Of a stretch of 64,000 nucleotides of DNA, positions 6,710 through 53,455 are shown piece by piece. The DNA is taken from NCBI GenBank assembly GCA_036000105.1, contig DASYGE010000007.1:100793-164792 (forward strand). The letters run 5' to 3'. The position numbers were made by a program, and so were the translations under genes. The stretch comes from Gammaproteobacteria bacterium (GTDB taxonomy: Bacteria > Pseudomonadota > Gammaproteobacteria > Natronospirales > REEB76). Below the pieces are notes generated by a model that ran no database searches, was not told the origin of the DNA, and saw only the letters and a program-made list of their open reading frames with translations. Numbering within the stretch: position 1 is the first letter of the stretch; every line of letters begins with the position of its first letter.

Positions 6710-6718
6710 ACCCGGATG

Positions 6719-6757
6719 AAAAAAACGGCAGGGCTCTTGAAGAGCCCTGCCGTCTCT
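6719..6757. terminator. Bidirectional terminator between the two convergent MNIO operons
   Basis: A7-ACGGCAGGGCTCT-TGA-AGAGCCCTGCCGT-CTCT perfect 13-bp stem. Confidence 0.8.
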
Positions 6758-6770
6758 ATGGCCTATCCTG

Positions 6771-8455: not shown

Positions 8456-9306
8456 GCGGCTCGCTCTTTCAGTATCGGGTTCGCGATGGCCCGTGCCTGA
8501 TTCAGTTCCGCCAGCACCTCTGCCAGCGGTGGGATGTTGGCGTCCCGTTCGATCATGGTGGACACCGGACCGAAGTGCCGTACTGCCTCGGCGTAGAGGT
8601 CCCATACGTCGCGGATGATGGGCTGATCGTGGGTATCCACGATGATATTGCCGTTGTAGGTGTGGCCGGCCAAGTGGAATTGACGCACCCTCGCCGCCGG
8701 CACGCCCCGCAGGTATTCCCGCGGATCGAACTCGTGGTTATGGCTGCTCACATAGATGTTGTTGATGTCGAGCAGGATGTGGCAGTCTGCCGCCTCGCAG
8801 ATGGCACTCAGGAACTCCCACTCGCTCATGGCCGACTGGGTGTAGGTGACATAGCTGGAGACGTTCTCCAACAGGATCTGCCTGCCCAGATAGTCCTGCA
8901 CCTGCCGCACGCGTGTCGCCACGTGCTGCACCGCTTCCTCGGTATAGGGCAGGGGCATGAGGTCGTGCAGGTTCTTGCCCGCGATGCCGGTCCAGCACAG
9001 GTGATCGGATATCCAGCGGGGTTCCACTCGTGCCGCCAGCGCCTTGAGGCGCTTCAGGTAATTCATGTCCAGCGGATCGCCGCCGCCGATGGAGAGCGAC
9101 ACGCCGTGCATCACCAGCGGATAGAGGGCGCGGAAGCGCTCCAGGTAGTGGAGCGGCTTGCCGCCGTCCACCATGTAGTTCTCCGAGAGGATCTCGAGCC
9201 AGTCCACCGCCGGCTTCTCCGCGAGGATGGCTTCATAGTGTTCGGTGCGCAGGCCGAGGCCGAAACCGAGATAGGGCCGCGCGGTGTCGGATGTCTTGTT
9301 GCTCAC
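8452..9306 (-). CDS. bufB2: Second DUF692 MNIO, BufB2/HvfB-like
   Basis: [51 protein letters not shown] motifs. Confidence 0.92.
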
Positions 9307-9345
9307 GGTCGAATTCTACTCGTGTGTGTATCGCAGCAGACCGCA

Positions 9346-9388
9346 CAAAAGGAAAGACCCGGCCACCTGTTAGGGCGACCGGGTCTTT
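9346..9388 (-). terminator. Intrinsic terminator/attenuator between bufA2 and bufB2
   Basis: AAAGACCCGG / CCGGGTCTTT 10-bp stem followed on the minus strand by TTTCCTTTT. Confidence 0.7.
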
Positions 9389-9413
9389 CTCTCAAGCCAA
9401 TGACGTAAGGCTA

Positions 9414-9674
9414 TTAGGCCTTGCCGCCTTCGAACTTGCCGCCGGCCTTGTCGCAGTCAGCCTTCGTGGTCACCACGAAGCCCTTGCCCTTGCAGGAGTT
9501 CTGGCCTTTGCAGCCATGGTCGAAACTCTTGCAGGAGCTCTGGCCCTTGCAGGAGTTGCCACCCAGACACTTGCCCGTGGCAGCGCTGTCAGCAGCAGTG
9601 GCGAGGGGAGCCAGCACGAACAGGCTGGCGGCGATGGCGGCGATGGCGATACCGGAAACTTTAGTCGTATTCAT
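9414..9674 (-). CDS. bufA2: BufA2-type bufferin RiPP precursor (Sec signal, 6 Cys, CKG repeats)
   Basis: Signal peptide then KCLGGNSCKGQSSCKSFDHGCKGQNSCKGKG...DC; GAGGA RBS; first gene of the DUF692-DUF2063 operon. Confidence 0.85.
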   Translation of the reverse strand: MNTTKVSGIAIAAIAASLFVLAPLATAADSAATGKCLGGNSCKGQSSCKSFDHGCKGQNSCKGKGFVVTTKADCDKAGGKFEGGKA

Positions 9675-10034
9675 GATAGACGTCCTCTAATAGAGTTGGT
9701 TGTTAACACCCGAAACAACATGTTGATACGGATCACTCCACGGTCCGCCAGGGGATCCGGAATCCCCTGGGGGCCCGGTTCACCGTGCGGGGTCACCCGC
9801 ATCTCAGATTGAACCCATATCGTCCAGGTTCATCCTAAGATACGGACTGTCGGGACTCCGGGATGCGGCCTTTGACCCGCAACCTAGTGCATCCACAGGT
9901 ATATGGAAGACCCGGCAGGGCAGTATTTATTACACAATTGTTAGTCTGGCGCCAACATGACATTAACGCCCTGCTATGTTGGCCGCTATTATGTAAGTGG
10001 GGTGGCGGCAAGGAGTTGCCACATGGGTACTTAA

Positions 10035-10053
10035 CCTGAGTAATTAACTCAGG
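10035..10053. promoter_or_regulatory. Perfect inverted repeat, candidate operator
   Basis: CCTGAGT-AATTA-ACTCAGG, 25 bp upstream of the dsbA-like ATG, in the divergent bufA2/dsbA spacer. Confidence 0.4.
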
Positions 10054-10078
10054 ATTTGCCAGCCGGGGAGTCACCACC

Positions 10079-10825
10079 ATGCAAAAGCCAGCCGACGAGG
10101 CCCCTGACCGCTCACGTTATTGGCTGTATGGGGGCATCGCGCTCCTCATCATAGCCATCGTCTATACCGGTATCCTGCTCATCCGCGCCCGGGCCGGCGC
10201 GGCGGATCAGAGCGCCGCGGTGGAAGCCGCCGCCGCCAACGCGCCCCAGGTACAGTTCGTGCCATCCGAGGATGCGGTGGGCGTGAGCATGGGCCAGGCA
10301 GACGCGCCCGTGGTGGTGCGCGAGTTCGCTGATTACCAGTGTCCCGCCTGCGGCACCTTCGAGCCCGCGCTGGAGAAGATGCGCAAGGAATACGTGGACA
10401 CCGGCATGGTGCGGTTCGTGTTCTTCGATTACCCGCTGGATATCCACAAGAACGCCATGTTCGCTTCCCTTGCAGCGCGCTGCGCCGGCTCCCAGGGGCA
10501 TTTCTGGCCCATGCACGATCTGCTCTATGCACGGCAGCAAGACTGGGCCGAGGCGGCGGAGCCCATCGCCAAGTTCCAGTCTTACGCCCAGGAACTCGGT
10601 CTGGATCCCGGCGCGCTGCTCGGTTGCATACGCTCAGGCACTACCCGCCAGGACGTGATGCGCAGCCAGGCCTATGGCGATGCGCTGGGGATCAATGCCA
10701 CGCCGAGTTACGGCGTGAACGGCGCCGGTCGGGCGGGTGCCATGCCCTACGATGAACTCAAGGAGCTCATCGAGCAGCAGTACGCCCTGGCGCACGGCCC
10801 CAAGCCCATCACCCAGAAACCCTGA
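10079..10825 (+). CDS. Membrane-anchored DsbA-family thiol-disulfide oxidoreductase
   Basis: N-terminal TM helix; EFADYQCPAC active site; VRFVFFDYPL; GINATP cis-Pro loop. Confidence 0.85.
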   Translation: MQKPADEAPDRSRYWLYGGIALLIIAIVYTGILLIRARAGAADQSAAVEAAAANAPQVQFVPSEDAVGVSMGQADAPVVVREFADYQCPACGTFEPALEKMRKEYVDTGMVRFVFFDYPLDIHKNAMFASLAARCAGSQGHFWPMHDLLYARQQDWAEAAEPIAKFQSYAQELGLDPGALLGCIRSGTTRQDVMRSQAYGDALGINATPSYGVNGAGRAGAMPYDELKELIEQQYALAHGPKPITQKP

Positions 10826-10833
10826 GGCCGGTC

Positions 10834-11136
10834 ATGGCGGAATACCGTATGCAAGGGAGCGATCTCTACGATCGTAACCGGAACCGCCTGGGATATCTCC
10901 GGGACAGCACCGTGTTCGATGCGGTCAACAGCCGCATGGGTTACGTACGCAACAACGACATCTACGATTCCCTCAACCGGCGTATGGCCTTCGTGCGGGA
11001 CACGGATGTCTATAGCGCCAGCAACAACCGCATGGACAGCCTGGAAAACTTCCGCAAGCGCATCCAGGGCGCGCCGGAGGGACCCATGGCGGTGGCGCTT
11101 TTGATGTTGCTGGTGAGGACCCCGGGCGGGGAATAG
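10834..11136 (+). CDS. Small protein with four 16-aa tandem repeats (beta-flower-like)
   Basis: DLYDRNRNRLGYLRDS / TVFDAVNSRMGYVRNN / DIYDSLNRRMAFVRDT / DVYSASNNRMD, then a hydrophobic C-terminal helix. Confidence 0.6.
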   Translation: MAEYRMQGSDLYDRNRNRLGYLRDSTVFDAVNSRMGYVRNNDIYDSLNRRMAFVRDTDVYSASNNRMDSLENFRKRIQGAPEGPMAVALLMLLVRTPGGE

Positions 11137-11142
11137 TTTCAG

Positions 11143-11571
11143 CTAGCGCGCGCGCGCCTTGATGCAGGCGAGATAGGCCTGTTCGTCAGGAAGGCGATTC
11201 TCCCGTTGCGCACGCCACAGGGCTTCTCCCAGGCATTCCAGCATCGTGTGTTCCGCAGCGTGGGCATCGCCGGTGTGGATCAGCAGTGCACTGTGGGCCG
11301 CCTTGATGCCGGCCGGCCGGTCTATGGAGAGTTGCTCGCGGATGGCGATGTGCATGCCCATATGCAGGAAGGGATTGGTCTCGCCGCCTTCCGGCAGCCA
11401 ATCCTTGTCCAGGGTCTCGCCGCCGTCTTCCAGCAGCGGATGGTATTCCGGATGCAGGCGGATCACCTCGGCGATGATGGTCTCCAGCGCCGTCATGGGC
11501 AGACCGTCCTGCATCTTCTTCCAGGCGTCGAAGAACGGTTGGCGCGTGTCGCTGCGGTTAGTGGAGTACAT
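11143..11571 (-). CDS. DUF1841 family protein
   Basis: R.FFDAWKK...LE...HPEYH...NPFLHMGMHIAIREQLSIDRP...H...ECL. Confidence 0.85.
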   Translation of the reverse strand: MYSTNRSDTRQPFFDAWKKMQDGLPMTALETIIAEVIRLHPEYHPLLEDGGETLDKDWLPEGGETNPFLHMGMHIAIREQLSIDRPAGIKAAHSALLIHTGDAHAAEHTMLECLGEALWRAQRENRLPDEQAYLACIKARAR

Positions 11572-11582
11572 GGAAGAAGATT

Positions 11583-12275
11583 CTAACGCTTGCGCGCTTC
11601 GACGGGTTTCTTCTTCCCCAGGTTCAGGGGCACTTTCGGTTCCGGCTTGGTCTTCTGCCGGTACTCACATAGGTCGGCGATGATGCAGCGAGGGCATTCG
11701 GGCTTGCGGGCTTTACATACATAGCGCCCGTGCAGGATCAGCCAGTGATGGGCGTCCTGCTTGTACTCATCCGGCGTGAACTTCACCAGACGGTCTTCCA
11801 CTTCCCGTTCATCCTTACCCGGCGCGAGTCCCGTGCGGTTACCTACCCGGAAGATATGGGTGTCCACGGCGATGGTGGGTTCGCCGAAGGCGGTGTTCAG
11901 TACCACGTTGGCGGTCTTGCGACCGACTCCCGGCAATGCTTCCAGGGCCACCCGGTCCCGGGGCACTTCACCGCCGTGCTGCTCCAGCAGCATCTGGGCC
12001 GCGGCGATGATGTTCTTGGCCTTGGTGTTATAGAGGCCGATAGTCTTGATATAAGGTTTGAGTCCGGCTTCACCAAGCTTGAGCATGGCAGCGGGGGTAT
12101 TGGCCACGGGATAGAGCTTCAGCGTGGCTGCATTCACGCTCTTGTCCGTGGCCTGGGCTGAGAGGGTCACGGATACCAGGAGTTCGTAAGGCGTCTGGTA
12201 TTCCAGTTCCGTGGTGGGTTTGGGGTTCGCCGCTTTGAGCCGGCGATAGATCTCCGCGCGTTTCCCGGGGTTCAT
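11583..12275 (-). CDS. nth: Endonuclease III
   Basis: LSAQATD, HhH LPGVGRKTANVV, AVDTH, C-terminal CKARKPECPRCIIADLC Fe-S motif. Confidence 0.95.
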   Translation of the reverse strand: MNPGKRAEIYRRLKAANPKPTTELEYQTPYELLVSVTLSAQATDKSVNAATLKLYPVANTPAAMLKLGEAGLKPYIKTIGLYNTKAKNIIAAAQMLLEQHGGEVPRDRVALEALPGVGRKTANVVLNTAFGEPTIAVDTHIFRVGNRTGLAPGKDEREVEDRLVKFTPDEYKQDAHHWLILHGRYVCKARKPECPRCIIADLCEYRQKTKPEPKVPLNLGKKKPVEARKR

Positions 12276-12276
12276 A

Positions 12277-12909
12277 TCAATGTTTCCCCGGTGCAGATTG
12301 CGCACGTTTTGCCCTGACTCGGGCCACCGCTGCCGCGATCTCTGCTTTTCGGTCTGCCACGGCGCTGCGTTGTGCCGCCCGCTCGCGACGCGCTTCCCGT
12401 TCCATGCTTAGCCGTTCGCCATGCTGGTGATAGCGTCCACGTAATGCATCGGCGCGATCGGGTCCACCCTGGGGGAACTGCCAGCCTTCATAGCCTTCGG
12501 TCACACCCTGGACAGGGGTGAGGCGTATGCAATCCACGGGGCAGGGGGGCAGGCAGAGTTCGCAACCCGTGCAGAGGGCCTCCACCACCGTGTGCATGAG
12601 TTTGGGCCCGCCCAAGATGGCATCTACCGGGCAGGCACTGATGCATTTGGTGCAGCCTAAGCAGAGGGGTTCGTCGATGAAGGCCACGGTGCCGCTGATG
12701 AAGACGCCCACTTCCGGATCCAGTTCGCGGACCGTGCGCCGCAGCAAAGCTGAGAGCGCCTGCAGGGTCTCATGTCCGCCCGGCGGGCAGCGGTCTATAG
12801 CGGTCTGATCAGCGGCTATGGCTTCTGCATAAGCACGGCAATCGGGGTAGCCGCAGCGGGTGCATTGGGTCTGCGGAAGCAGGGCGTCGATTTCGTCTAC
12901 CGTGGCCAC
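12277..12909 (-). CDS. rsxB: Standalone RsxB/RnfB-like ferredoxin
   Basis: [14 protein letters not shown]...CPPGG plus two 4Fe-4S motifs; no other rnf genes in the window. Confidence 0.85.
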
Positions 12910-12921
12910 GGCAGGGGAAGC

Positions 12922-14976
12922 TTACTTGACCTTCATCCCGGGTTGCGCGCCGGCGTGGGGTTCGAGTATCCAGAGGTCCTTGCCGCCCGGCCCCGCCGCC
13001 AACACCATGCCTTCGGACATGCCGAACTTCATCTTGCGCGGCGCCAGGTTCGCCACCATCACTGTGAGCTTGCCTTCCAGTTGCTCCGGCGCATAGGCAC
13101 TCTTGATGCCGGCGAACACGTTGCGCGTGCCGTCGCCGAGGTCCAGCGTCAGTCGCAGGAGCTTGTCGGCCCCCTCCACGTGTTCCGCCTTGGCGATGCG
13201 CGCGATGCGCAGATCGATCTTGGCGAAATCCTCGTAGCTGATCTCGGCGGTGATGGGATCCATGTTCGATGCCTTCTGGGTGGTTTTCGCCAAGTCTTCC
13301 TTTGAAGCTTCGACCATAATTTGAATTGCTTTAGGGTCAACTCGAATCATTAATGGTTCGTATGGGCGTATTTTCTCAGATGGATATTCATTTAAATGCG
13401 CAAAATCTAGCTTGCCTTCTAGATTTAAGAACCGCGCGACATTATCGGCAAATTTCGGCATCACTGGCTTTAGATAGATAGTCAAAATGCGAAATGCATT
13501 GATTGCAAGACTGCAAATTTCATGCAATGCCTCTTTGGCATCCGGACGTTTCGCAAGTTCCCAGGGCTTATGTTTATCTATTGTCTGATTAATGTAGTCA
13601 GCAAGCCGCATCACCTCACGAATTACGACAGCGTATTCACGGTCCTCATAAGCACGAGATATTTCTTCTTCAGCAACTAGCAAGACTCCTGCAATTACAT
13701 CGATACTCACATCTGATTTTCCAACGTCATCTTTTGGCTTGGCCAACTTCCCATCAAAGTTTTTAGTTATGAAGCCCGCGCAGCGGCTCGCGATGTTCAC
13801 CAGCTTGCCCACCAGGTCCGAGTTAACCCGCTGCAAGAAATCTTCCAGGTTGAGATCGATGTCGTCTATGCCCGGGCCGAACTTGGCGGCGAAGTAATAG
13901 CGCAGGTATTCGGGCTCGAGGCCAGCATCCAGATAGGTCCGGCCCTTGATGAAGGTGCCCCGGGACTTGGACATCTTCTGTCCGTTCACCGTCAGGAAGC
14001 CGTGGGCGTATACCGCAGTAGGCGTGCGGAACCCTGCGCCCTCCAGCATGGCCGGCCAGAACAACGAATGGAAATAGATGATGTCCTTGCCGATGAAGTG
14101 GTACACCTCTTTGGTGCTGCCCTTCTTCCAGTAGGAATCGAAGTCCAGGTCCTTGCGCCGGGCGCAGAGGTTCTTGAAACTCGCCATGTAGCCGATGGGC
14201 GCATCCAGCCACACATAGAAATACTTGCCCGGCGCATCGGGTATCTCGAAGCCGAAGTAGGGCGCGTCGCGGGAGATGTCCCAGTCCTGCAGGCCGGCGG
14301 CGAACCACTCATCCAGCTTGCGCGTCACCGCCTCGTGCAGGTGCCCAGCACGGGTCCATTCGTGCAGCATCTTGTCGAAGTCGCCCAGCTTGAAGAAGTA
14401 ATGCTCGGATTCCCGTTCCACCGGACGGGTGCCGGAGATCACCGACACCGGGTTCTTGAGGTCCGCGGGGCTATAGGTGGCGCCGCAGTTCTCGCAGGAA
14501 TCGCCGTACTGGTCCGGCGTGGCGCAGCGCGGGCAGGTGCCCTTGATGAAACGGTCCGGCAGGAACATCTTCGCCTGCTCGTCATAGAACTGGCGGATGG
14601 TACGCACCGCGATGTGGCTCGGCTTCGCGTCCCGCAGGTTCTTGTATATCAGCGTCGCCAGCTCCCGGTTCTCCGGGGTGTGGGTGCTGTGGTAGTTATC
14701 GAAACTGATCAGGAAATCCTTGAAGTCCCGCTCGTGCTCCACCTTGACCCCGGCGATCAGTTCCTCCGGGGTGATGCCGAGTTCCCGCGCCTTCAGCATG
14801 ATGGGTGTGCCATGGGCATCGTCGGCGCACACATAGATGCAGTCCCGCCCGGCCATCTTCTGGTAGCGCACCCAGATGTCCGTGGAGATATAGCCCACCA
14901 GATGGCCCAGATGGATGGAGCCGTTGGCGTAGGGCAGGGCGTAGGTGACTAGGATGTCGCGGTCTTTCTGCGGCAT
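12922..14976 (-). CDS. metG: Methionyl-tRNA synthetase with C-terminal tRNA-binding domain
   Basis: [13 protein letters not shown], zinc knuckle, KMSKS, C-terminal Trbp111-like domain. Confidence 0.97.
13295..13770 (-). other. AT-rich in-frame patch within metG (anticodon-binding domain)
   Basis: Hand counts 23/60, 24/60, 24/60 GC (lines 13321, 13381, 13681) versus 41/60 and 37/60 in flanks (13141, 13861); A/T-ending codons dominate. Confidence 0.85.
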
Positions 14977-25446: not shown

Positions 25447-26022
25447 TCAGTTCCAGGCCCATTTCCTGCTCAAGGCCTTGAGCACGCTGTCGGAATAATC
25501 GATGCCTACCGTGGCGCCGTTGTAGCGTTGCAGCGCCTCGCGGATGTCGCCGTGGGATTTCCCCAGGTAGTACTTCAGGATGGTGCAACCCATGCGCAGG
25601 TTGGTCTTGGCGTGCACTAGGCTGTCGTCGGCCCGCCCGATGAGCTTCAGCCAGAAGGGCATGATCTGCATGAGCCCCACGGCCCCGGAATGGGAGACTG
25701 CGTAGGGATCGAACTTGCTCTCCACCTGGATGAGGGCCAGCACCAGCTGCGGCGGCAGTTGGGCGCGGTTCGCCTCTGAGTGGATCATCTTGAGGAGCTT
25801 GAGGCGTTCGTCCGGGTCCGGCACGATGTCCGCGAGGCGCAGGGACATGTCCGTGAGCCACACTTGCTGAGTGTATTTGTCCGCGAAATCGCTCTTGTCG
25901 TCTTCCGCCTGCTGCACCAGGGCGATGAGTTCGGGATCAGGCTTGGTGAACTTCTGGGCGTGGGCCGGGCCGGCGGTTATCAGGCCCACCGCCAGGAGAC
26001 CCCAGCCCAGGGCGCCACGCAT
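25447..26022 (-). CDS. SLT-domain lytic transglycosylase
   Basis: ALIQVESKF...AVGLMQIMP...ALQRYNG. Confidence 0.88.
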   Translation of the reverse strand: MRGALGWGLLAVGLITAGPAHAQKFTKPDPELIALVQQAEDDKSDFADKYTQQVWLTDMSLRLADIVPDPDERLKLLKMIHSEANRAQLPPQLVLALIQVESKFDPYAVSHSGAVGLMQIMPFWLKLIGRADDSLVHAKTNLRMGCTILKYYLGKSHGDIREALQRYNGATVGIDYSDSVLKALSRKWAWN

Positions 26023-27740
26023 CAGGTGCCGGCCGCCATCCGCTGTTTCAGGAAGCCCATGATCTCGCCTGCGGGGATGTTCTGGTTCTCCGCATCGCGC
26101 CGGCCCTTGTATTCCACGGTGCCGGCATCGAGCCCACGCTCTGACAGCACCAGGCGATGGGGGATGCCGATGAGTTCCGCATCGGCGAACATGGGGCCGG
26201 GCCGGAGGTCCCGGTCGTCCAGGAGCACGTCGTAGCCTGCCTCCTGTAACTCCTTGTAGAGCTTCTCGGCCGCGGTCTTGAGCTTCTCGGACTTCGCCAT
26301 GTTGAGGGGTAGGAGCGCGATGTCGAAGGGGGCGAGGGGTGCCGGCCAGATGATGCCGCGCTCATCGTGGTTCTGCTCGATGGCGGCTGCCACCACCCGG
26401 CTCACGCCGAGGCCGTAGCAGCCCATCTGCAGGGCCACGGCCTTGCCCTGGTGATCAAGCACCGTGGCCTTCATGGCGTCCGCGTACTTGGTGCCGAGCG
26501 AGAACACATGGCCCACTTCGATACCCCGTGCGATGCTTAAATGTCCCTTGCCGTCGGGAGAAGGATCGCCTTCCTTCACCTTGCGCAGGTCTTCTACGCG
26601 GGTGATGTGCGCATCCCGTTCCCAGTTGGCGCCGCGATAATGTTTGCCCGCCTCGTTGGCGCCGCAGACGAAGTCCGCGAGGGCCGCTGCCGCCCTATCC
26701 ACGATGATCGGCAGGTCCTTGGGCAGATGCACTGGGCCGATGAAGCCGGGTTTGCACTTGATGGCCTTCCAGATCTCGCCCTCATCCGCCAGCACCGATT
26801 CACCGGGCAGTTCCGGGAGTTTCGCTGCCTTGGCTTCGTTGATCTCATGGTCACCCCGCAGGCAGAGGGCCACCAGGCCCTTCTCGCCGCGCACGATGAT
26901 GGTCTTGACGCATTGTTTCGGATCCACCTTCAAGAAGGCCGTCAGGTCTTCGATGGTCTTCTGGCTGGGGGTGTTCACCGCTTCCAGGGACGCGGCAGGT
27001 GCAGGGCGCGAGCCGGCGGGCGCGAGGGCTTCCGCCAACTCTACGTTCGCCGCGTAGTCGGATCCGGAGGAGAAGACGATGGCGTCCTCGCCGGAATCGG
27101 CGAGCACGTGGAACTCATGGGAGGCGTTACCGCCGATGGCGCCGGTATCGGCTTTCACGGCGCGGAACTTGAGCCCCAGGCGCGTGAAGATGCGCGCATA
27201 GGTGTCGTACATGTTCTGGTATTCCCGCGCGAGGCCTTCCGGGCTCACGTCGAAGGAGTAGGCATCCTTCATGATGAATTCCCGGGCACGCATCACCCCG
27301 AAGCGCGGGCGAATCTCGTCGCGGAACTTGGTCTGGATCTGGTACACGTTGAGCGGCAACTGTTTGTAGCTCTTCAGTTCCGCCCGCGCCCAATCCGTCA
27401 CCACTTCCTCGTGGGTGGGGCCGTAGCAGTATTCCTGCTCTTTGCGATCCTTGATCTTGAGTAACTGCCCGCCGAACTTCTCCCAGCGACCGGTCTCTTC
27501 CCACAGTTCCCTCGGTTGCACCGAGGGCATGAGCATCTCCAGGGCGCCGGCGCGGTTCATCTCCTCCCGCACGATGCCCTCGACTTTAGCCAGCACCCGC
27601 AGGCCCAGCGGCGTCCAGGTATAGATACCGGCGGCGAGCTTGCGCAGCATGCCGGAGCGCAGCATGAGCTTGTGGCTCATGGTCTCCGCATCAGCGGGGG
27701 TTTCCTTGACGGTGTTGAGCGGGAAGCGGGAGGCGCGCAT
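26022..27740 (-). CDS. proS: Prolyl-tRNA synthetase with editing insertion
   Basis: [33 protein letters not shown] anticodon domain. Confidence 0.97.
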
Positions 27741-27820
27741 GGGTGTACTTATAGGTTTTGGAGCGGAAAGACCGTATTCTAACGGCCTGTGCTCCCCGGA
27801 GCCTAGCGGCAGCGGACCCC

Positions 27821-28810
27821 ATGCGGCTTTTTTATGATGTGGATACCGATCCGGCTCTGATCCGCGGCCGTCGCGTGGCGGTGCTGGGCTTCGGCGCGCA
27901 GGGCCGGGCCCAGGCAGCGAACCTCAAAGATTCGGCGGTCAAGGTCAGTGTTGGCTTGCGGGCGGCATCGGCCTCACGCGCCGCAGCGGTTGCCGCCGGC
28001 CTCCCGGTGGCGGAACCGGCAGAGGCTGTGGCTGCTGCCGATGTGGTGGTGATGCTCGTGCCGGACGAAGTCCAGTCCCAGGTCTATCGGGAGGTGGTGG
28101 AACCCCGTCTCCGCAAGGGCGGCGCGCTGGTCTTCGCCCATGGCTACAACATCCATTACGGCCGCATCAAACCCCGGGCCGATCTCGACGTCATCATGGT
28201 GGCGCCCAACGGCATAGGCGAGCAGGTGCGCGCCCAGTATGCCGCCGGCCACGGCGTGCCGGGCATTATCGCGGTGCACCAGGACGCTTCCGGCCAGGCC
28301 CGCGCGCTCACGCTCTCCTATGCCTGGGCCCAGGGCCATGGGCGGGCCGGCATCATCGAATCCAGTTTCGCGGAGGAGACCGAGACGGATCTCTTCGCCG
28401 AGCAGGCGGTGCTCTGCGGCGGGCTCACCCATCTCATCAGCGCCGGCTTCGAGACCCTGGTGGAAGCGGGTTATGCGCCGGAGATCGCCTACTTCTGCTG
28501 CCTGCACGAGATAAAGCTCATCGCCGACATGGTCTATGCTCGCGGCATCGCCGGCATGCGCGAGTCCATCTCCGCCACCGCGGAGTTTGGCGATTACACC
28601 CGCGGGCCGCGGGTCATCGGTGCCGAGACCCGCGCCGCCATGCGCGCGCTCCTGGGCGAGATCAGGAGCGGCGCTTTCGCCGCGGAACTGGATAGCGAGA
28701 TGCAGGCCGGCAAACCCGTCATCCAGGCGGGCCGCGCGAAGGCCCGCGCGGCGCTCATCGAGCGCATCGGCGGGGAATTGCGCGCGCATATGGGGGCGGC
28801 TAAACGCTGA
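27821..28810 (+). CDS. ilvC: Class I ketol-acid reductoisomerase homolog with substituted active-site residues
   Basis: [38 protein letters not shown]; APNGIG and YFCCLHE deviate from consensus APKGPG and YFECLHE. Confidence 0.85.
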
Positions 28811-28891
28811 GCTGGGTGCCGAACCGCGGCGCAGACAGCGCCGGCCGTTCATGGCATCATGTTGCCATCATCGGATCGAGGCCTTGAGGGC

Positions 28892-29725
28892 ATGCAGAAG
28901 ATAGTCATCCCCGACGAGGATGTGGAGACCGAAGTCGGCCTCGACGAAGAGGAACCGGGCTCGGCCGCCGTCGATGCGGAAGGTCCGCGCCGCCGCGGCA
29001 TCTATCTCCTGCCCAACCTGTTCACCACCGCAGGCTTGTTCGCGGGGTTCTACGCCATCGTCGCCGCCATGGCCGGCAAGTTCGAGCCGGCCGCCATCGC
29101 CATATTCGTGGCCATGGTCTTCGACAGCCTGGACGGACGGGTGGCGCGCTGGACTCACACCGAGAGCGCTTTCGGCAAGGAATACGACAGCCTCGCGGAC
29201 ATGGTGTCTTTCGGTCTCGCGCCTGCCCTCGTCATGTACGAGTGGTCTCTGCATTCCCTGGTGGATTACGGCAACGTCCTCGGAAAGCTAGGCTGGATGG
29301 GCGCCTTCACCTATGCAGCCTGCGCCGCCATGCGTCTCGCCCGCTTCAATGTAAACGCTGGAGTGATAGACAAGCGTTACTTCCAGGGGCTGCCGAGTCC
29401 TGCCGCTGCCGGCATCTTGGCTGGCGCCGTCTGGTGCGCCGATAGTTTCGACGTGCCCGGCTCCGCCCTCATCATCCCGGCCTTCATCCTTACCGTGGGC
29501 GCGGGCTCGCTCATGGTGAGCAGTATCGGTTTCTACAGTTTCAAGGACCTGAAGCTCCAGGGCCGCGTGCCTTTCGCCGCGCTCCTCCTGGTGCCGGTGC
29601 TCATCGTGGTCATCGTGCTGTCGCCGCCCAACATCCTGTTCCTGAGCTTCCTGCTCTACGCTTGTTCAGGTCTGAGTATGGCCTTCTGGCGTCTGCACAA
29701 GCGCCTGAACAAGAAGGCTGCCTGA
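28892..29725 (+). CDS. pssA: CDP-diacylglycerol--serine O-phosphatidyltransferase
   Basis: [15 protein letters not shown]...[28 protein letters not shown]. Confidence 0.93.
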
Positions 29726-32631: not shown

Positions 32632-33891
32632 ATGCTGAAACTGAGCCGCAAGGTGAAGGGTTGGGCCCTCTATTACTGGGGCAACCACGCGTTCACTACC
32701 GCCATCATCACGGTCTTCTTCCCTATCTTCTTCAAGGATTATTGGAACCACGGGGTCGATCCCAGCGTCAGCACCTTCCGCTTGGGCCTCGCCAACTCCG
32801 GCGCCAGCCTGATCGTGGCCCTGTCAGCGCCCATCCTGGGTGCCATCGCCGACAAGGGCGGCCATAAGAAACGCTTCCTCGTGGGTTCCGCTTTCCTCGG
32901 CGCCGTGATGGTGTTCGCCCTGCACTTCGTGGATATCGGTCAGTGGCAGTGGGCCATGTTCTTCTTCATGGCCGCGTCCATCGGCTACTGGTGGGGCAAC
33001 GTGTTCGGCGATTCCATGCTGGTGAGCGTGGCGGAACCCGGCAAGTTCGACATGACTTCCGCCATCGGCTATTTCTCGGGTTACCTGGGGGGCGGGCTGT
33101 TCCTGGTGCTCGGCCTCGCCATGAGCCAGAAACCCCAGTGGTTCGGGCTCACGGACGCGGTCTCGGCGGTGAAAGTCATCCTCATGCTCACCGCCGTCTG
33201 GTGGCTCTTGTTCTCCATCCCCCTGTGGTTCTGGGTACCCGAACCCACGGCGCCGGTGAAAGGCCAAAGCCTCGGTAACGCGATCATGCAGGGCTTGCGC
33301 CAGCTGAGCGACACCTTCCGCCACGTGCGCTCTTACAAGCCCGTGTTCATGTTCCTCATCGCCTATTGGGTCTATATAGACGGAGTCAACACCATCATCC
33401 AGATGGCGGTGGACTACGGCAAAGCCATCGGTTTCGGCACCAGCGACCTCATCGCCGCAGTGGTGCTGGTGCAGTTCGTGGGGATCCCGGCGGCTCTGAT
33501 ATTCGGCCGCATAGGCGAGCGCATCGGGCCGAAGCGCGGCATCTTCATCGGCCTCTCGGTGTACGTGTTCGTCTCGGTGTTCGCCTCGTTCATGCACGCC
33601 GCCTGGCAGTTCTACCTGCTGGCGGCCATGATCGGTCTGGTGCAGGGCGGGGTACAGCTCTTGAGTCGTTCCTATTACGCGCGCCTGGTACCGGCGGAGC
33701 GCGCTGGGGAGTTCTTCGGCTTCTACAACATGCTGGGGGAGTTCGCCGCCATCATCGGCCCGGTGCTCATCGGCACTGTGAGCCTCATGACCGGCAGCCC
33801 GCGGATGTCGATCCTCTCGGTGATCGTACTGTTCGCAGTGGGTGCGTTCCTGCTTGCGCGAGTGGACGGCGGCAAACGTTCAGCGGGCTGA
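32632..33891 (+). CDS. MFS transporter (UMF1/Atg22-like)
   Basis: About 12 TM segments; GAIAD, DGVNTII, LSRSYYARLVP, FFGFY. Confidence 0.88.
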   Translation: MLKLSRKVKGWALYYWGNHAFTTAIITVFFPIFFKDYWNHGVDPSVSTFRLGLANSGASLIVALSAPILGAIADKGGHKKRFLVGSAFLGAVMVFALHFVDIGQWQWAMFFFMAASIGYWWGNVFGDSMLVSVAEPGKFDMTSAIGYFSGYLGGGLFLVLGLAMSQKPQWFGLTDAVSAVKVILMLTAVWWLLFSIPLWFWVPEPTAPVKGQSLGNAIMQGLRQLSDTFRHVRSYKPVFMFLIAYWVYIDGVNTIIQMAVDYGKAIGFGTSDLIAAVVLVQFVGIPAALIFGRIGERIGPKRGIFIGLSVYVFVSVFASFMHAAWQFYLLAAMIGLVQGGVQLLSRSYYARLVPAERAGEFFGFYNMLGEFAAIIGPVLIGTVSLMTGSPRMSILSVIVLFAVGAFLLARVDGGKRSAG

Positions 33892-35859
33892 TCTAGCCGG
33901 TTCGAAACCCCGCACCAGCTTGCTGAAGTGTCGGCGATCGCCTTCGTCCAGATAGCGTAGTTCGATGTAGCGGTCGGTGATGTCCAGCACCTGGCGTTCC
34001 AGGTCCGGACGCACCCGCGCTACCCGCATCCCGTAGTCCAACGGCCCCTCATGGGCATGCCGCCTGAAGCCGATGCGCGCCAGGCGCGCGCAGAAACGTG
34101 CGTAGTCCCGCACCACCGGAGCGGCGCCAGGCTGGCGCCGCTCCCACAGGAGATAGAGCCAGAAGAAGCCGAGGGTGAGGACGATGCAGAGCCCCAGCAC
34201 CAGGGCGAGCTGCAGCCAGTCGCCGTAGTCGAGGCCCACCTTCTTGTAGAACTTCTCCTGCAGTTCCGGCCCGTAGGCCAACACCCATTCGTTCCATCCG
34301 GTGTTGACCGCGTCCCAGCTGTTGCGCACGTCGCCGAACCAGGGGTGGGCGATATAGAACGAATCCGCCACCTCGTCATCCGGCAGCGAAGCCTCGAGAC
34401 CCTTCTCCACCCGCGCCGGATCCACCGCCCCGGTGGGGTCCACACGGGTCCAGCCCTTGCCTGGCAGCCAGACCTCGGCCCAGGCATGAGCTTCCTGCTG
34501 GCGCACCACGTAATAACCATCCACCGGGTTCAGTTCGCCGCCCTGATAGCCGATGACCACGTGGGCCGGGATGCCGGCAGCCCGCATCAGGTACACGAAG
34601 GCACCCGCGTAATGCTCGCAGAAGCCGCGCCGCGTATCGAACAGGAACTGATCCACCCGATCGTCGCCGCTGAGCACGCCGGGCTGCAGCGTATAGGAGA
34701 ACTTCTCCTGGTGGAACATGGTGAGCGCGTCCTGCACCACCTGCTCCGGCGATTGGGCGGTGCTCTGCCATTGCGCCGCCAGAGCATGGGCGCGTGGATC
34801 GTCCCGCGGCAGCTGCAGGTCGCGCCGCAGCATCCAGTTGGGCATGTTCGCGCCGTAGCTGTAATCGGTGTAGGAGGTGGCGCTGTAGAGCTTGCGCTCG
34901 GTGACGGGCGTGTGGGTGGTGATCTCGTAACTGGCGGAGAGTCCCGTGTCCTCCGGTATCTTCGAAGGCAGGTCGAGGGCGTAGAGGATGGACAGGTTGG
35001 TGGGTTCCAGGGTCACCTGGTAGTTCACTGCCTGGCCATGGGTGCTGAGTTCCAGTTGCCGGCGCCAGGGCAGGTTACCGCTGCTCCAGGTCTTGCCATC
35101 GTAGTCGTGCAGCACTATGGCCCGCCAATAGAGCGCGCTCTGGGGCGGTGGCGTGCCATCGAACTTCACCCGGAACGCCACCTCATCCGACTGGGCGAGT
35201 TCGCTTAAGTCCCCTGGTGTCATGCTGGAGGAGAGCCCCGTGACTCCCGCATGCTTCTGGGAGGCGAAGCCCCACAGGGGACCCGAGATGCGCGGGAACA
35301 GCAGGAACAGCACCGCTGCCAGGGGCAGGGCCGGTAGCAGCAGGCGCCCGGTGGCGCGCACAGAGACCCTGAGACTGCGTTCGCTGTCCGGGTGGCCCAC
35401 GTTCAGGAGCGCCACGGTGGTGATCCACACTGCGGGGATCATGTAGAGGGCCAGCGGCACCGTCTGGTCGTAGAGGAAGTTGGCGAGGCCGATGAAATAG
35501 GCCGTGATCATCACTAGGAAGTAATCCCGCAGTCCCTTGGATTCCATGAGCTTGAGGGTGGCGAGCAGCAGCAGCAGGGCTGCACCCGGCTCAGGGCCAT
35601 TGATGGTACGGTAGGTGAGCAGCACGCATACGAGTTCACCGATGGCCAGTGCCATGAGGAGCTTGCGGGAGGGTAGCGCCCAGCCCCGCCAGGTGCAGGC
35701 CACGCGCCAGAGGGCGAGCAGCACGGCCACTGCCGTGATCCAGGGCGCGATGTTGAACACGTGCGGTGCTGCCATGGCGGTGAGTGCCAAGAGCGTCCAA
35801 CCGAGCCGTTGGCGATCCATGCGTCGTGCGTAGTCCAGGGGCTGTAGTTCCGGCGTCAC
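33880..35859 (-). CDS. TgpA-like DUF3488 plus transglutaminase-domain membrane protein
   Basis: LFLLFPR, RGFCEHYA, GYQGGE, AHAWAEVW, DPT catalytic motifs. Confidence 0.92.
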   Translation of the reverse strand: MTPELQPLDYARRMDRQRLGWTLLALTAMAAPHVFNIAPWITAVAVLLALWRVACTWRGWALPSRKLLMALAIGELVCVLLTYRTINGPEPGAALLLLLATLKLMESKGLRDYFLVMITAYFIGLANFLYDQTVPLALYMIPAVWITTVALLNVGHPDSERSLRVSVRATGRLLLPALPLAAVLFLLFPRISGPLWGFASQKHAGVTGLSSSMTPGDLSELAQSDEVAFRVKFDGTPPPQSALYWRAIVLHDYDGKTWSSGNLPWRRQLELSTHGQAVNYQVTLEPTNLSILYALDLPSKIPEDTGLSASYEITTHTPVTERKLYSATSYTDYSYGANMPNWMLRRDLQLPRDDPRAHALAAQWQSTAQSPEQVVQDALTMFHQEKFSYTLQPGVLSGDDRVDQFLFDTRRGFCEHYAGAFVYLMRAAGIPAHVVIGYQGGELNPVDGYYVVRQQEAHAWAEVWLPGKGWTRVDPTGAVDPARVEKGLEASLPDDEVADSFYIAHPWFGDVRNSWDAVNTGWNEWVLAYGPELQEKFYKKVGLDYGDWLQLALVLGLCIVLTLGFFWLYLLWERRQPGAAPVVRDYARFCARLARIGFRRHAHEGPLDYGMRVARVRPDLERQVLDITDRYIELRYLDEGDRRHFSKLVRGFEPARSAR

Positions 35860-36845
35860 GCGGCTGCTTCCATCGCTGTATCCACACCGTGTAACGCCAG
35901 GGCTTTGAGGCAGCGATCCCGCTGTTCTTCGCCAGCAGCGGGTGCGATCAGCATGCTGGGTAACCTGAGGCCATAGGCCAGGTCTTCAGCGTGGGCTTCC
36001 AGCACCCAGCGGCACAGGATCGAGAGGCGCGCTTCGTCGCCCAGACTCGGCAACTGGGTCCAATCGAACCAGCGGGCTTCCTCGCCGGTGCCGGAGAAGC
36101 GTTTGGTGAGCAGTTCACGTTCCTTGGCCGAGGCTTTCCAGGCGATGCGGCGCGGTGAATCGCCGGGCTGATAATTCCGCAGGCCGCTGAAGTCATCTTC
36201 GCCCTGGTCGTTGGGTCGGCCCAATCCGCGACCGCCCAAGGGCTCGGGCATGGGTGGCGCCTGTTCTGCTGGCGCCGGATACACCAGCACCCGCCAATCC
36301 ATGTATGCCCAGCTCCAGGCATGGAACAGCGCCAAGGGGTAGGTGGTCTCCACCGACAACCTGCCGATGGGTTGCCAGCCGCGCCGCGTGGTGACGAGCG
36401 GTACCGGGGCGAGGCTGTCCGCCGCCGCCGGGATGTCGTTGGTGATGGTGCGCTCATCCGATTCCGCGCTGAGCGTCACGCCGGTGCGCGGCTGCCGCCC
36501 GGCGTTGGAGACCTTCACATGGAAGCGCGCCGTCTCGCCGGCGAACACCGGCGCCACGCTCACGGCATCGATCTGCAGTCCCAGCAGGTTCGCATGGGTG
36601 GCGTTCATGGCCACCATGCCGAGGGACGCCAGCAGGAACACCAGCATGAAACCCATGCTGTTGGCGTAGTTCATGGAGGCCAGCATCATCACGAACACCG
36701 AGACGCCGTAGAGCAGTCCCTGGCCGGTGGGCAGGATGTAGAGACGGCGTTGCACGATGCTCACGCGTCGGCCGTCGGGACCCTGGCGGCTGCGGGCCCA
36801 TTCCCGGATGCGGCGCCGGAACCGTGCGCGCAGGGCGGTGAACAT
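35856..36845 (-). CDS. DUF58 domain protein
   Basis: YILPT, YPLALFHAW, DFSGLRNYQPGD...IAWK. Confidence 0.9.
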   Translation of the reverse strand: MFTALRARFRRRIREWARSRQGPDGRRVSIVQRRLYILPTGQGLLYGVSVFVMMLASMNYANSMGFMLVFLLASLGMVAMNATHANLLGLQIDAVSVAPVFAGETARFHVKVSNAGRQPRTGVTLSAESDERTITNDIPAAADSLAPVPLVTTRRGWQPIGRLSVETTYPLALFHAWSWAYMDWRVLVYPAPAEQAPPMPEPLGGRGLGRPNDQGEDDFSGLRNYQPGDSPRRIAWKASAKERELLTKRFSGTGEEARWFDWTQLPSLGDEARLSILCRWVLEAHAEDLAYGLRLPSMLIAPAAGEEQRDRCLKALALHGVDTAMEAAA

Positions 36846-36848
36846 GTT

Positions 36849-37793
36849 CTAGGGGATCGGGACGGCTTCGAGCAGCTGGCGGGCGAGCTGGGCTGCGGGC
36901 GGCGCGTCCTGGCCGCCGCGCGGGCGCAGACGGTGGCCCACCACGCCTGACAATACCGCCTGCAGGTCTTCCGGCAATACGCCGGGCCGGCCGGCGAGCA
37001 GTGCCCAAGCCTGGGCGGCGTGCTTCAGGCCTAAGGCCGCACGCGGAGACAGGCCGTTCTCGTACGCCGCGCTGTCGCGGGTATGGCGTACCAGGGATTG
37101 CAGGTAATCCAGCAGTGCGCCCGACACGTGGATCTTCGCGGCTGCTTCCCGCAAAGCGGCCAGGTCGCGCATATCCATTGCCGGTTGCAGGGCCGCGAGG
37201 ATCTCCCGGCGGTCACGGCCCTGTAGCAGCTCGCGTTCCGCATCCTGCCCCGGATAGCCGAGTTCGATGCGCATCAGGAAGCGGTCCAATTGAGATTCCG
37301 GCAGCGGGAAGGTGCCCACCTGATGCAGGGGGTTCTGGGTGGCGATCACGAAGAAGGGTTGCGGCAGGGGGCGGGTCTCGCCGTCCACCGTCACCTGCCG
37401 CTCCTCCATGGCTTCCAGGAGCGCGCTCTGGGTCTTGGGGGTGGCGCGGTTCACTTCGTCCGCCAGGATGAGCTGCGCGAAGATGGGGCCCGGATGGAAA
37501 CGGAAGGTCTCGGTCTGGCGCTCGAAGATGGACGCGCCGATGATATCCGCCGGCAGGAGGTCGCTGGTGAACTGGATGCGCTGATAGGAGAGGCCCAGCA
37601 CCCGCGCGAGGGTGTGGGCGAGGGTGGTCTTGCCCACGCCGGGGATGTCTTCGATGAGCAGGTGGCCGCCCGCCAGGAGGCAGGCGAGGCAGAGACGTAT
37701 CTGCGCGTCCTTGCCGAGCACCACGCGGTTGGCTTCCGCGAGGGCCTGCTCGAGTTTCCTCATATGGGGATGGACCAGGCTCTCCTGAGCCAT
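36849..37793 (-). CDS. moxR: MoxR family AAA+ ATPase
   Basis: EDIPGVGKT, RIQFTSDLLPAD, DEVNRA, ATQNP, GTFPLPESQLDRF. Confidence 0.93.
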   Translation of the reverse strand: MAQESLVHPHMRKLEQALAEANRVVLGKDAQIRLCLACLLAGGHLLIEDIPGVGKTTLAHTLARVLGLSYQRIQFTSDLLPADIIGASIFERQTETFRFHPGPIFAQLILADEVNRATPKTQSALLEAMEERQVTVDGETRPLPQPFFVIATQNPLHQVGTFPLPESQLDRFLMRIELGYPGQDAERELLQGRDRREILAALQPAMDMRDLAALREAAAKIHVSGALLDYLQSLVRHTRDSAAYENGLSPRAALGLKHAAQAWALLAGRPGVLPEDLQAVLSGVVGHRLRPRGGQDAPPAAQLARQLLEAVPIP

Positions 37794-37888
37794 AGCCCGT
37801 TTATCCGCGACCATGTATACCTCCGCGGTTCACCTTATGCCAAGGACCACACACCGTCCACGCGCGGCTCGAGAGCCGTTGCGTACGG

Positions 37889-51269: not shown

Positions 51270-51300
51270 ACTATAGCCCCGGGTCCTGCAGGCGGTCTTG

Positions 51301-52128
51301 ATGTACACCCAGCCCAAGAACACGTCGGAGACGAAACCGGTCACCCTCGCCACCCTCGCCAAGATGAAGGCGGAGGGGAAGAGGATCGCGAGCCTCACCG
51401 CCTATGACGCGAGCTTCGCCGCGCTCCTGGATGAAGCGGGCGTGGATTTCGTGCTGGTGGGGGATTCTCTCGGCAACGTCGTCCAGGGGCATGCCACTAC
51501 CGTGCCCGTCACGGTGGATGACATCATCTATCACACCCAGAACGTCGCCCGCGGCCTGAAGCGCGCCTTCCTCATGGCCGACATGCCGTTCATGAGCTAT
51601 CCCACGCCGGAGGAGGCGCTCTTCAACGCTGCGCGCCTCATGCAGGAGGGCGGCGCCAAGATGGTGAAACTGGAAGGCAGCGGACGCCAGGAAGACATCG
51701 TCCGCTATCTCACCGACAATGGCATTCCGGTGTGCGCCCATCTGGGGCTGCGTCCCCAGTTCGTGCACAAGCTGGGTGGTTTCATGGTGCAGGGCCGCTC
51801 AGCCTCCGACGCGAAGCAGATGATCAAGGACGCACAACTCCTGGAGAAGGCCGGCGCCGACATGATTCTCCTCGAACTCGTGCCCAGCAGCCTGGCGGCC
51901 AAGATCACCGCCAAAGTGCATGTGCCGGTCATCGGCATAGGCGCCGGGCCGAAAGTGGACGGCCAGATCCTCGTGCTCTACGACATGCTGGATATCACCC
52001 CGGGTCGCCGGCCGAAGTTCTCTCGCAACTTCATGGCCGATGGAGGCAGTCCCGCCAAAGCGGTGGCCGCCTTCGTGGAAGCGGTGCGCGACGGTAGCTA
52101 TCCCGCGGCCGAACACAGCTTCGACTGA
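51301..52128 (+). CDS. panB: 3-methyl-2-oxobutanoate hydroxymethyltransferase
   Basis: LTAYD, LVGDSLG, KLEG, HLGLRPQ, GIGAG. Confidence 0.96.
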   Translation: MYTQPKNTSETKPVTLATLAKMKAEGKRIASLTAYDASFAALLDEAGVDFVLVGDSLGNVVQGHATTVPVTVDDIIYHTQNVARGLKRAFLMADMPFMSYPTPEEALFNAARLMQEGGAKMVKLEGSGRQEDIVRYLTDNGIPVCAHLGLRPQFVHKLGGFMVQGRSASDAKQMIKDAQLLEKAGADMILLELVPSSLAAKITAKVHVPVIGIGAGPKVDGQILVLYDMLDITPGRRPKFSRNFMADGGSPAKAVAAFVEAVRDGSYPAAEHSFD

Positions 52129-52133
52129 TCGTC

Positions 52134-53033
52134 ATGCTTACGGAACACAGCATCGCGGAACTCCGCCTGCGCATACAGCGCTGGCGCAACATCCGTCAGC
52201 GGGTGGCGCTGGTGCCCACCATGGGCAACCTGCACGCCGGGCATCTCGCGCTGGTCAAACGCGCCCGCGAACTGGCGGACCGGGTGGTGGTCAGCATCTT
52301 CGTGAACCCCATGCAGTTCGGGCCGAAGGAGGATTTCGGCGCCTACCCCCGCACCCCGGATGCAGATCGCCTGCAGCTCGCCGTGAACGGCGTGGACCTG
52401 CTGTTCGCACCTGAAGTGGACGAGGTGTATCCCGGCGGCATGGAGGGTGTCACCAAGGTGGAAGTACCGTCTCTCTCCGGCATCCTGGACGGCGCTTCGC
52501 GTCCCGGGCATTTCACCGGCGTCGCCACCGTGGTGGCGAAGCTCTTCAACATGGTGCAGCCGGATGTGGCGCTGTTCGGCGAGAAGGACTACCAGCAGCT
52601 CCTGGTGATCCGCCGCATGGCCGCCGACCTCTGCCTGCCGGTGGAGATCGTGGGTCACGCCACGGTGCGCGAGCCGGACGGGCTCGCCATGAGTTCACGC
52701 AACCAGTACCTCACCAAATCCGAACGCGCCCAGGCACCGCTGTTGCAACGGGTGCTGCGCGAGACCGTCTTCGCCCTGCGGGAAGGCGCGCGGGATTTCC
52801 TCGCCTTGCAGCAGCAGGCCATGCAGCAGCTGAATGAAGCCGGATTCCGCCCTGATTATGTCGAAGTGCGCCAGGCGGACACGCTGGCCACGCCCGGGGC
52901 TGCGGACCTGCGTTTCGTGGTGCTGGGTGCCGCCTGGCTCGGCAAGGCGCGGCTCATAGACAATATGACCCTGGACCTCAACATCCCGGCGGACCGTACC
53001 GTCGTCTTGAGCCGGGCCGAGAGCGTCGGGTAA
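52134..53033 (+). CDS. panC: Pantoate--beta-alanine ligase
   Basis: VPTMGNLHAGH, FGEKDYQQ, GLAMSSRN, RLIDN. Confidence 0.96.
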   Translation: MLTEHSIAELRLRIQRWRNIRQRVALVPTMGNLHAGHLALVKRARELADRVVVSIFVNPMQFGPKEDFGAYPRTPDADRLQLAVNGVDLLFAPEVDEVYPGGMEGVTKVEVPSLSGILDGASRPGHFTGVATVVAKLFNMVQPDVALFGEKDYQQLLVIRRMAADLCLPVEIVGHATVREPDGLAMSSRNQYLTKSERAQAPLLQRVLRETVFALREGARDFLALQQQAMQQLNEAGFRPDYVEVRQADTLATPGAADLRFVVLGAAWLGKARLIDNMTLDLNIPADRTVVLSRAESVG

Positions 53034-53074
53034 AATAAGCCCTTCGCGTTCGAACCAATCCCCCGGATATCCCC

Positions 53075-53455
53075 ATGCAGGTAACCTTGCTCAAGGCCAA
53101 ACTCCATCGTGCCCGCGTGACCCACGCGGAGCTGGACTATGAGGGCTCCTGCGCCATAGACGGCCGCCTGCTGGATGTCGCCGGCATGCACGACTATGAG
53201 CAGATCCAGATCTACAACGTCACCAACGGCGAGCGCTTCACCACCTACGCCATGCGCGCCGAGGCCGGTTCCGGCATCATCTCCATCAACGGTGCCGCCG
53301 CCCATCGCGCCAAGCCGGGGGACCGCATCATCATCTGCGCCTACTGCCAGATGAGTTCTGCCGAGGCGGCCCACCACAAGCCCCGGCTCATCTATCTCGA
53401 CGAACACAACCAGATCACCCGCACGTCCAACGCCATCCCCGTCCAAGCCGCCTGA
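53075..53455 (+). CDS. panD: Aspartate 1-decarboxylase
   Basis: [29 protein letters not shown]. Confidence 0.96.

Follow-up and report, generated by a model that had tools for sequence, protein, structure and literature searches.

Gene neighbourhood of the KARI-like gene

The window analysed here is a 64-kb stretch of gammaproteobacterial DNA. It contains a class I KARI-like gene that lies between proS and pssA (Table 1). JGI annotation of the 360-kb contig from which the window derives (3300035694, Ga0373489_0000003) begins the gene at the same ATG and calls it identically. The encoded protein consists of an N-terminal Rossmann domain (PF07991, 6e-63) and a knotted C-terminal domain (PF01450, 2.4e-51), and it scores 463 bits against the NCBIfam KARI equivalog NF004017, which has a cut-off of 336. 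HMMER aligned residues 1-324 with residues 1-324 of P. aeruginosa IlvC (1np3) at 57% identity without a gap, so the numbering is common to the window protein and P. aeruginosa KARI. An AF2 model built on 115 relatives (mean pLDDT 93.4) matched 1np3 in Foldseek with a TM of 0.95 at 57% identity. With a KARI_N Rossmann domain, a knotted KARI_C domain and a length of about 330 aa, the protein has the class I KARI fold.

Table 1 Features of the window and of related loci discussed in the text.
Sequence	Feature	Coordinates	Strand	Remarks
Window	proS (prolyl-tRNA synthetase)	26022..27740	-	divergent upstream neighbour
Window	proS / KARI-like divergent intergenic region	27741..27820	.	sequence scan
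Window	KARI-like gene, class I, 329 aa	27821..28810	+	translation; domain and structure matches
Window	codon 29, CGG, Arg for canonical His	27905..27907	+	alignment; R/K in 231/241 clade members
Window	codon 130, AAC, Asn for Lys	28208..28210	+	alignment to characterised KARIs, all Lys
Window	codons 132-134, I-G-E for P-G-H	28214..28222	+	fixed clade differences; N-domain lid helix
Window	D190-L-F-A-E194, both metal-ligand carboxylates kept	28388..28402	+	Gly193 to Ala in 240/241 members
Window	codon 226, TGC, Cys for Glu	28496..28498	+	alignment
Window	codon 230, Glu kept	28508..28510	+	invariant in clade
Window	pssA (CDP-diacylglycerol-serine O-phosphatidyltransferase)	28859..29725	+	conserved downstream neighbour
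Window	MoxR-DUF58-TgpA module	33880-37814	-	about 5 kb downstream
Window	panB-panC-panD	51298..53455	+	flanked by pgi and a gene for a deoxynucleoside kinase
L093	KARI-like-ilvE-panB-panC operon	1942-5860		Micrarchaeota family
L093	KARI-like gene	1942-2922		Micrarchaeota family
L088	TG-TG-KARI-like	4738-7993		K130-less gene
L086	KARI-like-232-aa ORF-MoxR-DUF58-TgpA	8001-13952		K130-less gene
L051	KARI-like gene split by a frameshift	10001-10911		Microflora Danica MAG
L044	variant-type copy	10001-10999		Planctomycetales MAG

The adjacency of ilvC and pssA is usual in beta- and gammaproteobacteria, normally with ilvIH ahead. We take PA4693-PA4696 of P. aeruginosa to be such an ilvIH-ilvC-pssA arrangement, and proS presumably sits where many beta- and gammaproteobacteria carry ilvIH. 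If this is so, the KARI-like gene occupies the ancestral ilvC slot. A reading made from the sequence alone (the sequence-only reading) had described an ilvC that has lost ilvI-ilvH upstream and kept its synteny with pssA. The neighbourhood agrees with that description, as proS starts 80 bp upstream and pssA follows after 48 bp. No ilv or leu gene was found in the 64-kb window outside the KARI-like gene, and the intergenic region towards proS contained no sigma-70 consensus and no detectable Rfam element.

The gene order is constant among the close relatives of the window gene (the clade described below): lytic transglycosylase and proS on the minus strand, then the KARI-like gene on the plus strand, pssA, family-4 UDG, rimI, prfC and MFS. 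The isolate XN8 and the window have a common gene order over more than 20 kb. The MoxR-DUF58-TgpA module downstream is also found clade-wide.

We profiled the flanks of variant and canonical loci for BCAA genes with validated queries. Acetolactate synthase was nearby in 0/52 variant loci versus 22/33 canonical loci, and leuA in 0/52 versus 25/33; the counts refer to the fetched flanks, and because the canonical set belongs to other phyla they are a contrast and no controlled comparison. The association with BCAA genes (ilvBN/ilvIH, leuA) by which a KARI locus can be recognised is missing from the variant loci.

Active-site residues kept and replaced

The sequence-only reading had placed H107, D190, E194, E230 and S249 at canonical positions and had pointed out K130N, E226C and QGRAQ in place of QGHAH. 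The gapless alignment to 1np3 bore out each of these assignments. H107 lies within FAHG, and D190 and E194 lie within ETDLFAEQ. APKAPGH of 1np3 reads APNGIGE, YFECLHE reads YFCCLHE, and the third change corresponds to H29R. P132I, H134E, G193A and V235A are further changes, absent from that reading.

The window protein lacks two hallmarks of a KARI, Lys130 of APKxPG and Glu226 of YFECLHE. It has others: the NADPH 2'-phosphate loop (LRxxSxS), H107, S249 and S251, and the metal carboxylates D190 and E194 together with E230, which are invariant in 115 aligned members of the clade. R47, S50, H107, S249 and S251 are likewise invariant in the clade, and S52 is present in 111 of the 115 aligned members. 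Both K130 and E226 are kept in every solved or characterised KARI that we matched, and none of the solved structures matching the KARI search lacked the Lys130 equivalent.

We take K130 and E226 to be equivalent to K155 and E389 of the E. coli enzyme and to K252 and E492 of the spinach enzyme, among the eight conserved polar active-site residues. Several single substitutions in E. coli KARI reportedly abolish the isomerase and keep the 2-oxoacid reductase activity (abstract of Tyagi et al. 2005). Residue numbers also agree with those of S. aureus KARI; there, helix G131-G143 shuts over the bound ligand, P132 and H134 stack on it, the alkyl pocket is lined by L233, L237 and S249, S251 hydrogen-bonds the ligand and E230 binds Mg2+ (PMC12202844). 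These contacts indicate that K130N/L/S, P132I, H134E and V235A line the site where the substrate binds, and G193A is placed between the two metal ligands.

A conserved clade carries the replacements

The sequence-only reading had treated the gene as a single oddity. This did not hold, as the substitutions characterise an entire lineage. The best 120 matches among 5.8 billion proteins (65-91% identity) all had the same changes, and a second search, seeded with a distant clade member, added 120 more clusters, giving at least 241 distinct 90%-identity clusters. These clusters and 49 species-level genome loci are 58-91% identical and bear the K130/E226 replacement signature. Across 241 clusters, position 130 is Leu (129), Asn (102) or Ser (10). 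Position 226 is Cys (182), Ser (30), Ala (18), Gly (8), Thr (1) or Glu (1), with one member not aligned; 239/241 members have C/S/A/G/T here. Five other positions show fixed differences from canonical KARIs: H29R/K, P132I/V, H134E/D, G193A and V235A.

We compared 80 species-level genome loci, 47 of them relatives with at least 58% identity and 33 below 58%. The set of 49 loci consists of these 47 relatives plus two additional copies of the window gene itself, with L081-L083 set aside. All loci at or above 58% identity read QGR/KAQ, AP[LNS]GIG[ED], DLFAEQ and YF[CSAGT]CLHE (47/47), whereas all loci below it read QGHA, APKGPGH, DLFGEQ and YFECLHE (33/33).

The reading frame is intact in the 241 clusters. 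When the window gene was compared pairwise with 15 orthologues, dN/dS was 0.12-0.38, with omega inflated because dS is near saturation. The gene is under purifying selection and is a conserved KARI derivative. The earlier claim that a KARI derivative without K130 and E226 has been retained stands on clade-wide conservation and on these ratios. At positions 130 and 226 the clade has a changing choice of small or neutral residues, in an active site that otherwise does not vary, a pattern expected if both are unneeded. Selection and the invariant NADPH-loop, metal and substrate residues indicate a folded protein, and the window protein very probably binds cofactor and metal.

The clade hosts are uncultured Gammaproteobacteria from soil, sediment and saline habitats (SMAG, Microflora Danica MAGs, 'Natronospirales' and 'Thioalkalivibrio sp.' MAGs). 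'Thioalkalivibrio sp. XN8' (GCA_011058255.1) is the sole isolate.

A sequencing error or a pseudogene as the source of the replacements was ruled out by clade-wide conservation and dN/dS. Four members of the clade or its type are unusual. P0083, from a 1.5-kb JGI contig, combines N130 with a retained E226 (YFECLHE) and a canonical-like RYSVSD, and may be an intermediate or a recombinant. In the closest genome relative (L051, 89% identity), a frameshift near codon 207 splits the gene; this locus is on a long contig, probably from a long-read assembly, so a sequencing or assembly error is the more likely cause. L011 (JBLNDO010000078.1) is labelled 'Bacillota bacterium MAG97' and has the full gammaproteobacterial synteny with a 79%-identical variant gene; the contig is probably mis-binned or mislabelled. 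The Planctomycetales copy (L044; VGPNGIGP, YFCCLHE) has wholly different neighbours (gdh, ferritin-like, hybrid histidine kinase) that give no functional pointer, and it reflects either horizontal transfer or mis-binning.

Recurrent loss of K130 and E226 in the KARI family

We scanned 1.84 billion cluster representatives without a profile and obtained 150 that belong to the KARI family (P0122-P0271). D190 and E194 are intact in 120 of them; both K130 and E226 are kept in 91 and both are lost in 15. Single losses affect K130 in 12 (9 with E230Q) and E226 in 2. Loss of K130 is coupled to loss of E226 (Fisher p = 4e-10 for the 120 representatives, not corrected for phylogeny). This pairing of Lys130 loss with the neutralisation of one neighbouring Glu suggests that K130 may be charge-coupled to the two Glu. 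K130-less KARI homologues are a recurrent, uncharacterised phenomenon. Homologues that lack K130, keep E226 and have E230Q are P0138, P0167, P0168, P0172, P0190, P0200, P0208, P0210 and P0213.

Phylogenetic analysis of 94 KARI-family sequences recovered the clade (SH-aLRT 95) and did not settle the deep branches, and a careful 42-taxon tree likewise left these without firm order. The free tree placed the clade near other Leu/Met130-Cys226 families. When the clade was forced together with gamma/beta-type canonical IlvC (including 1np3), the likelihood was 24 lnL better than that of the quick free search (AU p = 0.72). An origin of the clade from the resident proteobacterial ilvC is compatible with the trees and favoured by synteny, though this is no demonstration.

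The neighbours of the Leu130/Cys226 family P0191 give no functional pointer. Other K130-less families adjoin transglutaminase-like genes, a MoxR-DUF58-TgpA module or ispG. The loci L088 and L086 hold two unrelated K130-less genes in such settings, each packed closely against transglutaminase-core genes (Table 1). The proximity of KARI-like genes to MoxR-DUF58-TgpA or transglutaminase genes may be coincidence.

A KARI-like gene in a pantothenate operon of Micrarchaeota

One K130/E226-less family has an informative neighbourhood. Downstream of the gene for P0244 (K130S, E226G), and in the same orientation, lie genes for an IlvE-type branched-chain aminotransferase, PanB and PanC (L093 in Table 1). 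The aminotransferase scores 245 bits against NF005146 and 233 bits against TIGR01122. A metagenome scan added three more loci, 56-65% identical to P0244, for a total of four (L093-L096). The order KARI-like, BCAT, panB is kept in 4/4 of these loci, and panC is next where the contig continues. The family comprises 14 clusters (P0244, P0417-P0429) with K130S/H and E226G/C/V/A, and its named members are 'Candidatus Micrarchaeota'. A subgroup is also without H107 (VAGG or LAAG).

DPANN archaea are generally without amino-acid biosynthesis. The operon suggests a route in which BCAT converts valine to 2-oxoisovalerate, PanB makes ketopantoate, the KARI-like protein reduces it to pantoate and PanC forms pantothenate. 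Reduced archaea would in this way feed valine into a pantothenate route of the bacterial type. If the host makes ketoisovalerate from valine, the operon fits a KARI-derived ketopantoate reductase. This context supports a K130/E226-less KARI homologue as a putative ketopantoate reductase.

Pantothenate genes in the window

That IlvC can act as ketopantoate reductase is well established for C. glutamicum, Salmonella and Buchnera; C. glutamicum has no other such enzyme, and the Buchnera gene restores growth of E. coli strain FE8 (ilvC panE) (PMC4306246). The sequence-only reading had relied on this ability and on a panBCD operon without panE, and both points proved correct, with no panE anywhere in the 64-kb window, nor a panG or a canonical ilvC. 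The pathway to which panB, panC and panD belong requires a ketopantoate reductase. These genes lie 22 kb from the KARI-like gene. None of the variant loci examined gave PanB or PanC hits, so one mark of such an enzyme, linkage of its gene to pan genes, is missing in the window's clade and was seen only in the Micrarchaeota family.

Proposed function and alternatives

We propose that the window protein is an NADPH/Mg2+-dependent 2-oxoacid reductase without the isomerase step, most probably the ketopantoate reductase that serves PanC, and we give this combined reading a probability of about 0.5. From the residues kept and lost, it is likely that the protein is reductase-only. The choice of ketopantoate as its substrate is plausible but tentative.

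In this proposal, the protein would bind NADPH and two Mg2+ in the KARI manner. The metals, together with S249 and S251 from the partner subunit, would hold the 2-oxoacid, and hydride would go to its C2. Loss of K130 and E226 would prevent the alkyl shift and abolish acetolactate isomerisation, and hydride transfer would be kept. The remodelled lid (I132, E134) would adapt the pocket to substrates that are reduced without being rearranged. With ketopantoate as the presumed physiological substrate, the enzyme would supply pantoate to PanC.

The sequence-only reading had arrived at an isomerase-dead KARI retained as a 2-ketoacid or ketopantoate reductase. Its first part is favoured by a conserved gene that lacks the two residues and is unlinked to BCAA genes. 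The ketopantoate role gained an independent K130/E226-less family in ilvE-panB-panC operons, but not a link between the clade gene itself and pan genes. The neighbourhood in the clade is inherited and says nothing about function, and the Micrarchaeota analogue shares only about 40% identity and differs in its lid residues. A panE elsewhere in the genome would remove the need for a KARI-derived ketopantoate reductase. In related dehydrogenases the catalytic Lys is the proton donor; if K130 donates a proton in reduction, Leu130 should harm reduction too.

The fixed changes H29R, P132I, H134E and G193A look adaptive, and the substrate to which they are fitted could differ from ketopantoate. In that case the protein would be a neofunctionalised reductase or dehydrogenase without a tie to pantothenate, acting on another 2-oxo or 2-hydroxy acid (2-oxoisovalerate, hydroxypyruvate or glyoxylate, for example) or on an imine such as a pyrroline carboxylate. 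We consider this unlikely, though it is the best placed of the alternatives. Together with V235A, these non-conservative changes resemble the re-tuning of a binding site, and P132 and H134 touch ligands in SaKARI (PMC12202844). KARIs are promiscuous on many 2-oxoacids and even on pyrroline-5-carboxylate (PMC4353338). The K130-less families next to transglutaminase-like genes, MoxR-DUF58-TgpA or ispG also show that such proteins occur in unrelated contexts. Against this, the clade context points to no alternative pathway, and the sole K/E-less family with an informative operon indicates pantothenate.

Somewhat less probable is that the window protein is still a working KARI. Alkyl migration would be carried out by the two Mg2+, E230 and substitutes such as R29 or E134, and ilvIH, ilvD and leuA would be elsewhere in the genome. 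The ancestral position beside pssA, a score well above the equivalog cut-off and the intact metal ligands, H107, E230, S249 and S251 would all suit a KARI. So would the failure of the AU test to reject sisterhood with gamma/beta-type canonical IlvC, and the breadth of a clade that includes free-living soil and saline bacteria, in which BCAA auxotrophy is unusual. However, no solved or characterised KARI that we matched is without K130 or E226, and 91/120 cluster representatives have both. The variability of both positions (mostly Leu/Asn at 130 and Cys/Ser/Ala/Gly at 226) argues against specific chemistry there, none of the 52 variant loci keeps BCAA neighbours, and the same double loss occurs in the pan-operon family of DPANN archaea. 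If a canonical ilvC were absent from the genome, this would argue that the window protein is still a KARI. The more specific version, in which it is the sole KARI of a prototrophic lineage and performs both acetolactate migration and reduction through the dimetal centre, E230 and new residues such as R29 or E134, seems to us improbable. If true, it would overturn the need for the conserved Lys and Glu in KARI chemistry.

A catalytically dead pseudoenzyme, or a decaying ilvC relic kept ahead of pssA for a structural or polar (operon) reason, is very improbable: two catalytic residues are gone, dN/dS is higher than expected of a core enzyme and the L051 relative has a frameshift, but omega is inflated by near-saturated dS, the frameshift is more likely an error, the frame is intact in 241 clusters, and over the whole 58-91% identity range the residues for metal ligation, for substrate binding and of the NADPH loop do not change.

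Implications for annotation and KARI chemistry

The KARI-like protein of L093 scores 355 bits against the equivalog cut-off of 336. Since both K130/E226-less families exceed this cut-off, automatic annotation names them IlvC. In this way, hundreds of genes from soil, sediment and soda-lake Gammaproteobacteria and a DPANN family pass as ilvC, and metabolic reconstructions in which they are counted as such may falsely predict valine, isoleucine and leucine prototrophy. If our reading of a reductase-only enzyme is true, the clade is a natural case of a bifunctional enzyme that has dropped one half-reaction. The same two residues have been lost in two separate lineages, one of them inside a pantothenate operon. 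The clade offers natural variants with which to separate the residues for KARI isomerisation from those for reduction. Where a genome has no panE, a gene of this kind is a candidate to fill the ketopantoate reductase step.

Comparison with known systems

A literature search found no paper on a K130/E226-less KARI subfamily or on a KARI-derived dedicated ketopantoate reductase. The clade is a real and apparently undescribed KARI derivative, probably reductase-only. Its nearest known relatives are class I KARIs. The window protein is 57% identical to P. aeruginosa IlvC (1np3) and 55% to A. vinelandii IlvC (4xiy), has the same length and fold, and has in common with them the NADPH loop, H107, D190, E194, E230, S249, S251 and the adjacency to pssA. 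It differs in the replacement of K130, E226, H29, P132, H134 and G193 and in the lack of ilvIH or leuA neighbours. The E. coli KARI mutants each carry one engineered substitution in a class II enzyme, and the clade would be a putative natural equivalent of them.

PanE/ApbA (PF02558) and PanG perform the reaction proposed here, the NADPH-dependent reduction of 2-dehydropantoate, but they belong to protein families distinct from KARI. The PanE active site uses Lys, Glu and Asn and is metal-free, whereas a KARI-derived enzyme would be Mg2+-dependent.

The Micrarchaeota family resembles the window protein in its KARI fold, the small residues at K130 and E226, the replaced H29 and the kept D190, E194 and E230. 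It is of archaeal type, with an identity of only about 40%, still has P132 and G193, and lies in a pan operon, unlike the window gene. The moonlighting IlvC of C. glutamicum, Salmonella and Buchnera is the closest functional precedent, as a KARI-family protein in the role of panE with panB and panC present (PMC4306246). That enzyme is fully canonical and still takes part in BCAA synthesis, whereas the window protein is without the isomerase residues and would be reduction-only.
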